Positions 12,790 to 61,835 of a stretch of 64,000 nucleotides of DNA are shown piece by piece. Numbering within the stretch: the first letter of the stretch is position 1; each line of letters opens with the position of its first letter. A program made the translations under genes and the position numbers. The DNA is from Octopus vulgaris (Eukaryota), in NCBI GenBank assembly GCA_951406725.2, contig OX597823.1, positions 71,176,001-71,240,000 on the forward strand. The letters are read 5' to 3'. Under the pieces are notes generated by a model that was not told the DNA's origin, ran no database searches, and worked only from the letters and a program-made list of their open reading frames with translations.

Positions 12790-14080
12790 GCCATATATAC
12801 GTATATTTAGATGTGTGGGAGAGTGTCCGTGAATATGCATGTGTATGGGCGTGTGTGCATGTGTGCGCGTATGGTTTAGGTTATGTTTAATAATAGAATA
12901 ATCTTATATAGGTTATTATTCCTATTCATAAATTTGTTTTAGAGGGGTGTTGGTGTTTTTAATAGTATATTGCTGAGTAGGGAATGTTCCTGTATGTGTG
13001 TGGCTGAGTGTATGTATCTGCTGAATTTGTTACTCCTCTGTGTTGGAGTGTTGCGGTGGGAGTGCGGTTGTGTGTAAGTGATTGTGTGTGTGTGTGTGGG
13101 TGTGCATTGTTTATGTGTAGAAATGTTGTCTTATTTTGGGTGTTTATGTATGTGTGAATGTGTGCGTGTGTGTGTGTTTGTTTGCGTATTTGTGTATGTT
13201 TGTTGCATGCATGTGGTATTTGGAATGTGTGTGTGTGTGTTTGCTTTAAGTATTTATGTATGGTTGTTGTATATATGTGGTATATGGTATTTGGTAGTTT
13301 CTTGCTAAGAATGAAATGTTTCTGTGGGTTGTGGTTGAGTATCTGCGGCTGCTGGATGTGGTGTTTCCTCTGTGTTGTTGTCATGCTGAGTGAGTGTGTT
13401 TATGAATGAGGATTGTATGTGCGTGTGTGGGAGTATGAATAAGTAATGTGTAGAAGTATACGGCTACTTTATTAATTTGTCGTTGCCTAGATGTTTATGT
13501 GTATGTATAGAGATATATATATGGGTGTGTGAGTTAGTGTATGTATTTAGATATGTTTATATATATACTTAGATATATGTGTATGAGTATGTGTGTATAT
13601 ATATTTTATTTTTTGCTTTTTGTTTTTTGAATTTAGATTCTTCATCTTTAAATATGTGAACTTAAATACTAGATTTCATTATATTCAATTGTTTATAGAG
13701 GTTATTTTAGTTCTTGATTATATATAGATTATATATAGATTATATATATATATATTTTTTTTCATTGATGATAAATTTATATTATTTATATTTTTTAGTC
13801 ATTTTAAATTTATATCTTAAAAATATTGATTATTTTTAGATTTGAAAACCACCTGATGAATGTCCTTAGAAGAGACACGAAACAATTGTAGTGGCGAATT
13901 TAATTTTATTTAATTTATATAAAAATTTTTATGTATTGGATTAAGTCTTTCTTTGTTTGATTTGCATAATAGTGGTTTTGTCTCTAATTAATATTATATA
14001 ATATTTTACTATAAAATTGGATTCAATTCTAAATCTGATTTTTCCCTGTAAATTTGGATTTATTCCCTAATATTTATTAT

Positions 14081-25485: not shown

Positions 25486-27202
25486 GATTTGATTTTGATT
25501 TTGATTTTTCCAGTTTCAGCTAATGAGCTGTGGCCATGCTGGGGCACCGCCATTTGGTTTGCTACACGATTTTACCTTACGGATGCTTTTTAGCAAACGC
25601 CATCTGATGCATGAGAGAGTTCGATGCAGCTGCCCTCATCTGCACCTCCTGCCGCGAAGATGGTTCATCCGGGACACCTGACAGGAAGAGATCCAGTCCT
25701 ACTTTAAATAAATCCGCATCCACACCATGCAGGTCCCTCAGGTTCTTCGGGAGGATATTGAAGAGCTGTGGGCCTCTGAAGCCCAGGCTATCACAATATC
25801 TTGTCCTACATCTTGATGGCAAATTTGGAATCCTTGGTACTACGCAGTAGCGTCCGGTTCTGGCATTTGTGTGACTCTCGATGCCAAAGTCTGGGACAAG
25901 TCCTTCCAGGATCTTCCAGATATATATTATGGCATATCTTTCTCGCCTACGCTCCAGGGAATAGAGCTTTAATCTCTTGAGTCTTTCCCAGTAGCTCATA
26001 TGCTGCACAGAGGCTATCTTCTTCGTGTAGCTTCGTTGGATCGCCTCAAGTTCTGTGATCAACTTGACACTGGATGGTGACCATAGCTGAGAGCAATAGT
26101 CAAAGTGGCTTAGGACAAGTGTCTTCCAGAGGACCATCATGGTTTCTTGTTCTCTTGTTCTAAAGGTTCTAAGAATCCATCCAGCCAGCCGTCTACATTT
26201 CATTGCCAGTTTAGCAACATGTACATGAAAGGTCGCGTCATCACTCATGTGAATACCCAGGTCACGCACTGATTGTGCCTCTGGGATTGCAATCCCTCCG
26301 GGTCCAGTGTATTCATTGGGTATTGCATTTAGTTTTGCATGCTGATAGTATAAAGCTTGAAACTTTTCGGCATTGAACTGCATGCTATTCTTTTCAGCCC
26401 ACTTGTATATTTCGTCCAGCTCACATTGCAGGTGCTTAGTGTCCTCAGGTTTCTGTATTGCCTGTGAAAATTTTGTATCATCTGCATAACTTGTGATCGT
26501 GGCTCTCTGCGTGGCTGAGGGCATGTCTGAGAGGGCCATTATGAACAGTAGTGGTCCCAAAACAGTGCCCTGCAGAACACCGCTCATTATTTGCGTGTTA
26601 ATGGAAGTGGCCCCATTGGCTGCTACCACCTGACTTCTATTCTTCAGAAAGTCATGAAGCCATTCTCCCAATTTTCCAACTATGCCAAGATCACGCAGTT
26701 TGTGACATATCATTCCATGATCGACTTTATCAAAGGCCTTTGCAAAGTCGAGATATATGACTTCCACATTTGAGTGGTTGAGCAGTTGTTTCAGCACCCA
26801 GTCATAGTGTTGTAGGAGCTGAGTTAAGCAGCTTCTTCCTGGTCGGAAACCATGTTGGGTGTCAGGCAGCAAGTCATTTTCTTCAAGGAAGGTGATTAGT
26901 TTCCTTCTGACTATTCGTTCCATGACCTTGCTGATGTGTGAGGTGAGAGAGATAGGTCTGTAGTTCTTGGCCTCCGCTCTGCTACCTCCTTTATGAATAG
27001 GGCATATTTTACCTTCCTTCAGTTTTCTTGGAAGTTTGCCAGCTGCAAGGAAGCTCTGAAAGAGGAACTGCATTGGTCTTGCTAGGACTCTCTTACATAC
27101 TTTTTTAGGAGGATTGCCGGGAATCCATCGGGGCCAATAGCTGAGTCTGTTTTCATTTCATCTATAGCCTTTATTACATCGTCTTCCTTTATATCGATGT
27201 AA
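25486..27202 (-). mobile_element. 5'-truncated CR1/L2-group LINE, probably young
   Basis: Open RT reading frame, short 3' UTR with GGCGGTGCCCCAGCATGGCCACAGC...TGAAAC and an (AAAATC)n tail next to (TA)n. Confidence 0.95.
25577..27073 (-). CDS. LINE ORF2 reverse transcriptase domain and C-terminus (498 aa, N-terminally truncated)
   Basis: NYRPISLTS, QHGFRPGRSC, YLDFAKAFDKVDH, GVLQGTVLGPLLF and YADD motifs. Confidence 0.95.
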   Translation of the reverse strand: MQFLFQSFLAAGKLPRKLKEGKICPIHKGGSRAEAKNYRPISLTSHISKVMERIVRRKLITFLEENDLLPDTQHGFRPGRSCLTQLLQHYDWVLKQLLNHSNVEVIYLDFAKAFDKVDHGMICHKLRDLGIVGKLGEWLHDFLKNRSQVVAANGATSINTQIMSGVLQGTVLGPLLFIMALSDMPSATQRATITSYADDTKFSQAIQKPEDTKHLQCELDEIYKWAEKNSMQFNAEKFQALYYQHAKLNAIPNEYTGPGGIAIPEAQSVRDLGIHMSDDATFHVHVAKLAMKCRRLAGWILRTFRTREQETMMVLWKTLVLSHFDYCSQLWSPSSVKLITELEAIQRSYTKKIASVQHMSYWERLKRLKLYSLERRRERYAIIYIWKILEGLVPDFGIESHTNARTGRYCVVPRIPNLPSRCRTRYCDSLGFRGPQLFNILPKNLRDLHGVDADLFKVGLDLFLSGVPDEPSSRQEVQMRAAASNSLMHQMAFAKKHP

Positions 27203-40331: not shown

Positions 40332-40925
40332 TTTCTTATTGCCCACACGGGGCTAAACATAGAGGGGGCAAACAAGGTCAGACAAAGGTATTAAGTCGAT
40401 TACATCGACTCCAGTGCATAACTGGTACTTAATTTATCGACCCCAAAAGGATGAAAGGCAAAGTCGACCTCGGCGGAATTTGAACTCAGAACGTAACGGC
40501 AGACGAAATACCTATTTTTTACTACCCACAAGGGGCTAAACGTAGAGGGGACAAACAAGGACAGACAAAGGTATTAAGTCGATTACATCGACTCCAGTGC
40601 GTAACTGGTACTTAATTTATTGACCCCAAAAGATGAAAGGCAAAGTCGACCTCGGCGGAATTTGAACTCAGAACGTAACGGCAGACGAAATACCTATTTC
40701 TTTACTACCCACAAGGGGCTAAACACAGAAGTGACAAACGAGGACAGACAAAGGGATTAAGTCGATTATATCGACTTAGTGCCTAACTGGTACTTATTTA
40801 ATTGACCCCGAAAGGATGAAAGGCAAAGTCAACCTCGGTGGAATTTGAACTCAAAACGTAACGGCAGACGAAATACGGCATCGCATTTCGCCCGGCGTGC
40901 TAACGTTTCTGCCAGCTCGCTGCCT
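40332..40925 (-). mobile_element. SINE family C tandem trimer (one full unit plus two headless ~179-bp units)
   Basis: Three repeats of CCCACAAGGGGCTAAAC...GAAAGGCAAAGTCGACCTCGGCGGAATTTGAACTC...GACGAAATAC; only the last continues into the tRNA head. Confidence 0.9.
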
Positions 40926-46014: not shown

Positions 46015-46111
46015 CTATAAAATAAAATTCTCCAACTTCAAAAAAACTCTCTCTATTTCTCTCTCTCTCTCTCTCTATTTATCTATTTATCTATCTCCCC
46101 GTCTCTATACA

Positions 46112-46170
<59 letters not shown>

Positions 46171-46175
<5 letters not shown>

Positions 46176-47049
46176 AATTAAGGACTGAACAGGAAAAAGT
46201 GGACAGTCAACATGCTAGATATAGACGTCAAATCGCCATTCTCCACAAAGATTTTGTTCTCAAATAAAAATAAAATTCAGCACGACCTAAAGCAATGGTC
46301 GAATTCCATTTCGTATATTTCTTTTGTCTCATCCATTGCTTTAGGTCGTGCTGAATTTTATTTTTATTTGAGAACAAAATCTTTGTGGAGAATGGCGATT
46401 TGACGTCTATATCTAGCATGTTGACTGTCCACTTTTTCGTGTTCAGTCCTTAATTGGTATATATAAATATTTTAATCTTCGGATTCTTTTTAATGTGCTA
46501 GACCACTGGTTTTAATTGACTAATATCAATTTTTACCCTTAATTTTTAAATATGAAATATATGTTCTCAAACCGATAAATTGACTGCTGCTAATTATTAG
46601 CTGCAGGCTGGTTTTTCGATTATCAGCGCGCCAAAAGTAGAGGCATTTGAAAGATACATCCGAACGTAATAGGTCGTACTTTTTGCATGCGGGACTCCGG
46701 TACCGTTTTTCATCTAGTACAACATATTATTCTCATAACAAACTACGCTGACGAAGCTACAGATATCCTTGTGATATTAATAGCTGAAACTGTACGGTAC
46801 GTAGGTGATTATTCCATTTCGTATATTTCTTTTGTCTCATCCATTGCTTTAGGTCGTGCTGAATTTTATTTTTATTTGAGAACAAAATCTTTGTGGAGAA
46901 TGGCGATTTGACGTCTATATCTAGCATGTTGACTGTCCACTTTTTCGTGTTCAGTCCTTAATTGGTATATATAAATATTTTAATCTTCGGATTCTTTTTA
47001 ATGTGCTAGACCACTGGTTTTAATTGACTAATATCAATTTTTACCCTTA

Positions 47050-47056
<7 letters not shown>
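46171..47056 (+). mobile_element. Non-coding hammerhead-containing retroelement: 5' inversion plus 1.5-mer of a 508-nt unit, inserted in (TA)n
   Basis: Inverted repeat 46171-46298 / 46333-46460; direct repeat 46303-46548 / 46811-47056; hammerhead at 46743-46804; (TA)n on both flanks. Confidence 0.8.
46743..46804 (+). ncRNA. Canonical type I hammerhead ribozyme
   Basis: CTACG-CTGACGA-AGCTA...TAGCT-GAAAC-tgtacg-GTA-CGTAG: all core nucleotides and stems I and II intact; predicted cleavage after 46799. Confidence 0.9.
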
Positions 47057-47096
<40 letters not shown>

Positions 47097-47099
<3 letters not shown>

Positions 47100-47629
47100 G
47101 GTGTCCCAAAAAAATGTATACACTTGCTGCAACAGTCTGTCATGCCAAGCATTAGAGAAGACTTTGAACAGGAAGAGTTTTATTTCCAGCAAGATGGAGC
47201 ACCTCCACACTACCATCGCGATGTTAGATCCTTTCTTGATGGGATCTTGTCAAACAGGTGGATTGGGCGGAGAGGTTTTGTCGAATACCCTCCACGTTCA
47301 CCAGACCTCACATCACTAGACTTCTTTTTGGGGATACCTAAAGGACAAAGTCTACGCACAGAAACCTGCAACAGTCGTTCAATTGAGGGCAACCATTGAA
47401 CATGAATGTACGAATATTCCAAGGGAATTGTTCCATGATGTGTGCCATTCCATCGCTTCGCGTTGTCAGCAGTGTCTGGAGCAGAACGGACATCAGTTTG
47501 AGAACATGCGATAACAAGACAATAGAATGATATTTGTAAATTCTTTTACATGTTGAAATTATTCGAATTATAATAAATCCCAAATTTACAATTATTTAAG
47601 GTGTGTATACATTTTTTTGGGACACCCTG
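47097..47629 (+). mobile_element. Internally deleted Tc1-like transposon
   Basis: TIRs CAGGGTGTCCCAAAAAAATGTATACAC / GTGTATACATTTTTTTGGGACACCCTG; FQQDGAPPH...RWIGR...PPRSPDLTSLDFF. Confidence 0.95.
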
Positions 47630-59210: not shown

Positions 59211-61599
<2,389 letters not shown>

Positions 61600-61600
<1 letters not shown>

Positions 61601-61835
61601 CAACAAGGGAGGGTAAAGTTAATTAGTTATTAATCAATTTCATCAAGTGTTCAGTATGTAAAGGGACCAATATATATATATATATATTACAATTAATAAG
61701 AGTAATGACCACTAAAGTGGATTCCTATACGCTAGAGACAGACATCAAATCGCCTTACCACAAAGAGTGTGTTCCCAAGAAAGAAAACCAGCAAAAGCCA
61801 GAGAACACACTCTTTGTGGTAAGGTTATTTGATGT
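61600..61835 (-). mobile_element. Truncated third member of the hammerhead-retroelement family, with a short 5' inversion
   Basis: GCTAGAGACAGACATCAAATCGCCTTACCACAAAGAGTGTGTTC aligns with GCTAGATATAGACGTCAAATCGCCATTCTCCACAAAGATTTTGTTC (46214-46259); inverted repeat 61742-61773 / 61803-61835; its 3' end runs into a TA-rich array. Confidence 0.65.

Follow-up and report, generated by a model that had tools for sequence, protein, structure and literature searches.

We examined an inserted element within a 64,000-nucleotide stretch of Octopus vulgaris DNA (contig OX597823.1, positions 71,176,001 to 71,240,000 of the forward strand; this whole stretch is termed the window). The parts of the element and its flanks are given in Table 1, for which unit 1 was set at window position 46303, the unit length is 508 nt, and predicted cleavage falls after unit 497 (46799). 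Sites A and B are the two 3' end sites described below.

Table 1. The hammerhead element and its flanks, in window coordinates.
Feature	Position	Strand	Basis
Inserted element: ORF-less hammerhead unit, ~1.5-mer plus inverted arm	46171-47056		
Left-flank (TA)n target microsatellite	46115-46173	none	Tandem Repeats Finder
Inverted arm, unit 31-158, 3' end at site A abutting (TA)n	46171-46298	-	sequence, arm parse
4-nt junction joining the 5' ends of both arms	46299-46302		sequence
Full 508-nt unit, ORF-less, 34% G+C (34.4%)	46303-46810	+	sequence comparison, fold
TA-rich tract inside the unit, site A, unit 156-168	46458-46470	+	family 3' ends
Type I hammerhead, predicted cleavage 46799/46800	46743-46804	+	sequence; subfamily covariation
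Second unit, partial (unit 1-246), stopping at site B just past the conserved hairpin	46811-47056	+	
Right-flank (TA)n target microsatellite	47055-47094	none	Tandem Repeats Finder

The two direct repeats (46303-46548 and 46811-47056) were identical at all 246 bases and spaced 508 nt apart, in full agreement with a first-pass annotation made from the letters of the window; the 128-bp 5' inversion that it had described was also recovered, as the reverse complement of unit 31-158 with a single mismatch at 46192 and with 4 extra bases between the arms, and its (TA)n flanks were found as tandem repeats on both sides. The same annotation had reported no ORF, and the longest stop-free frames within the element were indeed 86 codons (+) and 73 codons (-), or 86 and 66 codons on the circularised unit. 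It had further noted that the repeat starts 11 nt downstream of the cleavage site; this offset is real in the window copy but is no rule for the family. Only one hammerhead is present in the window copy, and since at least two are required, this copy cannot itself release a unit-length RNA and is probably a dead end.

Other features of the window were recorded in passing. A fragment with 27-bp terminal inverted repeats and a broken transposase-like frame, which we take to belong to the Tc1/mariner-like DNA transposons, adjoins the right (TA)n flank (47097-47629). Three distant relatives of the unit (63-68% identity) lie at 1135-1350, 1539-1789 and 61583-61785, and another hammerhead-like motif, unrelated to the first and likewise short in helix III, lies at 13847-13905 (+). 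A reverse-transcriptase frame of 526 codons at 25577-27157 (-), presumably of a LINE-type retrotransposon judging from its motifs, is unrelated to the hammerhead element; a tandem repeat (183 bp x 2.9 copies, 92% matches) occupies 40342-40876.

The hammerhead was located by eye from its stem I, CUGACGA core, helix II, GAAA, helix III, and a GUA triplet ending at 46799; its helix III is short and near-palindromic, which is the form said to act in dimers (PMC4209133). The Rfam check proposed along with the first-pass annotation gave no hammerhead at the gathering score in the window, nor at E<=10 over 46100-47150, and the matches obtained at either threshold were dismissed as hairpin and TA artefacts. 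The 81-nt hammerhead region folded alone had a z of -1.6, and its minimum-energy fold was without helix III. The annotated canonical type I hammerhead was nevertheless borne out by the core together with covariation: when 11 copies of different subfamilies were aligned (one of the 11 rows only partly), 99% of cells paired and both-side, compensatory changes were seen in 9/19 pairs, a value that none of 500 shuffles reached, and slid controls paired at 24-45%. Folded as a circle, the unit gave -117 kcal/mol with 63% of bases paired (z -4.0 relative to 40 shuffles), and the consensus fold of 12 units contained 12 pairs with compensatory change, the hammerhead holding most of them. The best-conserved part in the alignment of these 12 units extends from ~65 to 245, around sites A and B; within it a long helix encloses site A and a hairpin precedes site B. 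The loop of helix III, 3-9 nt upstream of the cleavage site, was the most variable part of the hammerhead and differed even between passes inside one locus (L140:4180-5230); this loop may simply be unconstrained, or its variability may represent errors made after the enzyme crosses the ligation site.

The unit was searched for in the whole assembly (2.8 Gb, 227 contigs), which returned 117 matches among the 40 scored of 1,622 candidates. A 23-mer at site A (unit 137-159) had 1,787 exact matches genome-wide; the first 100 of these listed (C1, 10-158 Mb) represent 50 loci and form a position sample without length bias, so that ~900 or more loci are expected in the genome. An exact 24-mer was found in tandem in 4 of the 23 loci carrying it. 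A search with the monomer had been suggested; the copies met with are ORF-less and dispersed across most large contigs, and the 50 sampled loci were tabulated for arms, inversions and flanks. From the family, 59 full units of 488-518 nt were extracted, and its subfamilies are 82-100% identical to the window unit; an older relative of ~540 nt, 70-77% identical, is likewise ORF-less and two-armed. The 50 sampled loci, 46 best-hit loci and 30 loci belonging to the older relative were examined for a Penelope-type ORF contiguous with the unit; none was found, and Penelope-type fragments in the unit flanks were separate insertions. These data agree with the earlier description of an ORF-less, non-autonomous hammerhead unit of ~0.5 kb, and argue against the alternative raised with it, i.e., that the unit always flanks an RT/GIY-YIG ORF elsewhere. 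Two further ORF-less hammerhead tandem families were encountered, of ~497 nt (GUU triplet; L224-L243) and ~583 nt (GUC triplet; L244-L263), with ~1,600 and ~2,400 first-look candidates, respectively; the former has the A-B region in common with the window unit (67%, E 3e-8). Both of these and the ~540-nt relative were ruled out as the parent element, being ORF-less too. Contigs from three presumed-RNA sequencing runs and one run of unknown type cover the unit, and two of them join units head-to-tail, as genomic multimers would.

We compared the ends of the copies, leaving out of the counts any arm shorter than 40 nt or below 85% identity. All counted arms ended 3' at site A (unit ~155-163) or at site B (~246-255), ~90 nt apart in the unit, and then passed directly into (TA)n; ends at site A, the commonest 3' end of copies, fell just before or inside the internal TA tract. 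Two outward-pointing arms were present in 40 of the 50 sampled loci, and in each of the 40 one arm ended at A and the other at B; the remaining 10 loci were one-armed (8 A, 2 B). The filter removed a 39-nt B arm in L141 (this locus is really A/B), a 37-nt arm ending at unit 134 in L137, as well as older neighbours in three loci (L031, L109, L142). Of the 20 best-hit loci that were paired, 18 were A/B, the exceptions being L003 (A/A) and L028 (complex); L045 (A/A) and L016, whose second arm ends at unit 215 with many deletions, fell outside the pairing script. The L016 arm (L016:1877-2515) is unlike other copies in its many short deletions towards the 3' end and its stop at unit 215. By eye, the two-end pattern was also seen in 8/10 two-armed loci of the ~497-nt family and 9/11 of the ~583-nt family.

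The partial tandem, the inverted 5'-truncated arm and the tail on one arm constitute a Penelope-type insertion signature, as the first-pass annotation had supposed. Its suggestion of targeting to TA repeats was also upheld, TA being present on both sides in 46/50 loci and on one side only in the remaining 4; target-site duplications are indistinguishable inside (TA)n and were left out of scoring. The window copy would be read as an insertion product consisting of a 133-nt A arm and a 1.5-unit B arm. We infer that the TA tract at site A may serve as the first start site of reverse transcription; it could also be a candidate TATA box. Fold-back copying as the sole source of the inversions was rejected, since it fails for 7/40 two-armed loci, which are impossible as the fold-back of one arm and where at least two priming events are needed, and for the missing A/A loci; it may be the origin of the A/A locus L003.

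The 5' ends of the arms gave a different picture. The cleavage site was crossed by 33 of 91 arms, at least twice by 10 and at least three times by 5 (the longest arm is ~2,140 nt, or ~4.2 units), as expected from the earlier proposal of copying for more than one round. One copy, at C2:139196231-139197767, contains three hammerheads. The accompanying proposal that self-cleavage sets the 5' end was not supported: among the 91 arms none had a 5' end lying 5 nt or less from the cleavage site (unit 493-503), and passes stopped <=10 nt from it in 4 cases of 53 and ran through in 49. The 5' ends fell anywhere in the unit, with a hot spot at unit 21-100, a region of long-range helices in the predicted circle. 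A mild excess was seen just downstream of cleavage (8 versus 2.8 expected at unit 498-20, p 0.009), the stretch that includes the 5' end of the window copy itself; it may belong to the edge of the hot spot, or else a minority of the templates may have been linear and cleaved. In 21/40 loci the paired arms had 5' ends lying within 10 nt of each other, compared with 4.4 in permutations, and these agreed even where the arms differ in length by whole units. Several coincident arm junctions (11 were inspected) lay on short palindromes, and we therefore read the coincidence as microhomology joining; coincident ends as proof of one physical circle were dropped, since joining at palindromes gives the same result.

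Evidence about the template was drawn from the junctions and the variants. The cleavage site was intact, with no base added or lost, in 111/111 scored passes (96 loci); scoring required both flanks to be recognisable, and badly damaged junctions would have been missed. The variant count drew on 49 of the 96 parsed loci and took in sites over which two or more passes ran in one locus. There were 136 substitutions fixed in all passes, 101 shared between loci and 35 private to a locus, 23 of the latter across both arms; e.g., a private change was present in 5/5 passes of L128 and in 4/4 of L147, and several were present in both arms of L013. Of the partial variants, 114 were private, all but one confined to a single pass, and 10 were common to several loci, none at the same pass in two loci; a variant in several but not all passes of a locus was seen in only 2 cases. 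Fixation across passes indicates that all passes of one insertion usually derive from one unit-length sequence, and the scar-free passes and fixed locus-private variants together point to a template that was of unit length and probably circular. Gene conversion between units could also have fixed private variants. In L128 three inner units share a variant missing from the first pass and from the other arm, and in L003 the two terminal passes have a variant in common; these unit-specific variants are better explained by duplication in place, by template switching or by a linear multimer.

We looked in the same genome for an enzyme. Two Neptune-type families encode an ORF, absent from the window element, with RT, a Zn-finger-like linker and, at its C-terminal end, GIY-YIG. 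Family A (L181-L193) is young and intact, with an 842-aa ORF and a ~2-kb 3' UTR containing a hammerhead; downstream of their own hammerhead its copies run into (TA)n at one of two ends, short or long, and a short was paired with a long one in 5/5 inverted loci where both ends were seen, and a family A copy and a retrozyme copy occupy one TA array in L120 and L183. Family B (L291-L304) is very young, with a 717-aa ORF in a 2,590-nt unit and copies 99-100% identical; it forms complete tandems, arms of up to 3.6 units and tail-out inversions (e.g., C21:8154800-8162800), and its copies meet (TA)n at unit 41 or at unit 108, the two being combined in 7/8 inverted loci with both ends seen. At one family B locus two variants are mixed as a mosaic. 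The hammerhead motif lies upstream of both end sites in each family; position 4 of the family B core, usually a U, is a C, which makes its activity doubtful. The linker motif would place both families in Neptune or Nematis by the criteria given in PMC8557442. Pfam and PDB searches with the Neptune-type protein gave no useful match and no classification, and the atlas neighbours of the family A protein carried GIY-YIG and HTH_animal families. No autonomous parent of the unit was found when families A and B were compared with it, the similarity consisting of short motifs only, at site A (family B) and at site B (family A).

Taken together, the data suggest a protein-free family residing in (TA)n that is inserted by a Neptune-type RT plus GIY-YIG enzyme copying a probably circular RNA of unit length, a reading to which we give a probability of roughly 0.6. 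Mobilisation by a Penelope-type enzyme, taken alone, is very likely; the RNA circle is the weaker step. As judged from sequence, the element belongs with the non-LTR retrozymes, the features scored in this way being present (hammerhead, head-to-tail repeats, no coding capacity, G+C <45%, and a self-paired circular fold). A genomic copy with two or more hammerheads would be transcribed, and the transcript would self-cleave to unit-length RNA that is then ligated to a circle. After binding to the conserved A-B region, the Neptune protein would cut a (TA)n array in both strands; the two DNA ends would prime reverse transcription, one at A and one at B, possibly aided by short TA microhomology. 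Each enzyme would travel round the circle for anything from a fraction of a unit to >4 units, stalling most commonly at unit 21-100, and the two cDNAs would be joined at short palindromes or microhomologies to form a tail-out inversion. We suggest tentatively, and with less conviction, that a Neptune dimer sits on one hammerhead circle with its subunits at A and B, both rolling to write the two arms, and that the 2.6-kb element does the same. If so, rolling-circle twin priming would account for Penelope-like pseudo-LTRs, tails, tandems and inversions alike, and at least three families of retrozymes in this genome would be using Neptune-type machinery.

The main competitor holds that the template is the uncleaved linear read-through of a genomic multimer, driven by Neptune, with the hammerhead acting late or freeing transcripts from their flanks. 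Such a template would also yield scar-free junctions, and it would accommodate the unit-specific variants in L128, L003 and one family B locus. The short, dimer-type helix III (PMC4209133) is on its side, as are results with a lizard element, for which uncleaved RNA is reported as the dominant substrate in vitro and its own hammerhead as dispensable (PMC11167929). These results, along with the report that in vitro cleavage was absent in 8 of the 9 Xenopus retrozyme dimers predicted (10.64898/2026.07.22.740005), count against the explanation by a circle and a Penelope-type enzyme. Copying with 5' truncation would, however, only shorten arrays, yet arms of 3-4 units exist in subfamilies differing by 15-18%; variants were nearly always in all passes or in a single pass (136 fixed, compared with the 2 several-but-not-all cases), and no unit-specific variant at the same array position was common to two loci. 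We consider the linear multimer unlikely. A linear self-cleaved monomer, from whose 5' end the enzyme would jump at each round to a 3' end, its own or that of a different monomer, seems less probable again. Under this reading the single-unit bottleneck and the mildly raised number of 5' ends at unit 498-20 would be accounted for, and in a type I hammerhead the two ends would be kept together by stem I. Template jumps usually leave added or lost bases at the junction, whereas none were seen at 111/111 junctions; nor does jumping sit well with 0/91 5' ends within 5 nt of cleavage and 49/53 passes running through.

Li et al. 2026 discuss a scenario in which such copies would be what truncation left of the terminal repeats from an autonomous Penelope-like element, with unequal crossover later expanding them in place. 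The variant shared by three inner L128 units would fit this scenario, as would the >20,000 first-look Penelope-like candidates in the genome, part of whose families were examined. We regard it as improbable, since upstream of the hammerhead the long copies always continue as unit and never into an ORF, private variants are common to opposite arms and inner units (23 cases), 5' ends fall anywhere in the unit, and the copies are dispersed on most large contigs with a longest arm of ~4.2 units. Finally, the first-pass annotation had kept in reserve a local duplication or assembly artefact at the window locus, and inverted repeats in microsatellites are indeed reported to assemble poorly (PMC8557442); its likelihood is negligible, for hundreds of loci have the same two ends, head-to-tail units are common, and the genome search found a second 508-nt unit, 100% identical to that of the window, on another contig (C20), which means that the window structure is not an assembly artefact.

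The retrozyme class, and the model of a circle moved by a Penelope-type enzyme, are already published; the family described here adds an informative insertion record. Non-LTR retrozymes were defined by Cervera and de la Pena 2020, who show for coral, mussel and axolotl that cleavage occurs and circles form, and suggest that Penelope-like elements move them (PMC7229834), and circles were proposed in 2014 as templates for more-than-unit copying (PMC4209133). Both papers put forward that retrozyme circles are copied into DNA by Penelope-like enzymes. Li, Clavereau and Pollet 2026 tie retrozymes to vertebrate Penelope-like terminal repeats by co-occurrence and sequence, call the mechanism unresolved, and discuss later local tandem expansion (10.64898/2026.07.22.740005). 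In the account of Frangieh et al. 2024, two internal start sites explain the tail, and both target strands are cut in vitro (PMC11167929); PMC3846280 and PMC8557442 describe inversions, insertions in which one arm has a tail, a bias for microsatellites, and non-autonomous elements arranged head-to-tail. In the literature searched, most of it open, we found no description of the present family or of its rule of one site per arm; the family may be annotated in Repbase, Dfam or subscription papers. Hundreds of young copies here record the insertion step: the start sites are fixed at two places, the two arms strictly use one site each, the cleavage site is crossed without scars, and copying goes through a single-unit bottleneck, with intact candidate enzymes in the same genome. 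The 508-nt RNA, the (TA)n target and the two candidate proteins make up a small defined test system, which could address the role of the hammerhead in Penelope-like elements and the origin of tandems, tails and inversions.

Compared with known systems, the unit resembles metazoan non-LTR retrozymes in being ORF-less, low in GC, head-to-tail, and provided with a type I hammerhead and a predicted self-paired circle, and movement by Penelope-like elements has been proposed for them as it is here (PMC7229834, 10.64898/2026.07.22.740005). At 508 nt it exceeds the 150-450 bp given by Cervera (PMC7229834) and lies inside the 51-972 bp given by Li (10.64898/2026.07.22.740005). Unlike those retrozymes it occurs as short dispersed (TA)n insertions, whose 3' ends are fixed at two sites and whose inversions are tail-out; formation of the multimers at insertion is favoured by the data over the later tandem expansion of Li, and cleavage and circles, observed for published retrozymes, are predictions here. 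MRC1 and other non-autonomous Chlamys elements come from an alga, Chlamydomonas, and not from an animal; most Chlamys elements are reported without a canonical hammerhead and with 3'-end sequence in common with their autonomous partner (PMC8557442), where the present unit has short motifs in common with the two families compared. With the Neptune clade the family has in common the partial tandems, inverted 5'-truncated arm, one-arm tail, microsatellite bias and a hammerhead near the 3' end, and families A and B of this genome, both of this type, keep to the same two-end rule; it differs in that the unit is without an RT or GIY-YIG ORF and the tail is ~90 nt, as against 30-40 nt described for Neptune (PMC8557442, PMC3846280). 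A mechanistic parallel is Anolis Poseidon, in which copying likewise starts at two internal sites that lie downstream of the hammerhead, the target is AT-rich, and its two strands are each cut and extended (PMC11167929). For Poseidon the priming site is reported as not homologous to the target, and no difference in start site was seen between strands (PMC11167929), whereas both sites here are TA-rich, with possible microhomology, and the two arms use different sites in 40/40 loci.
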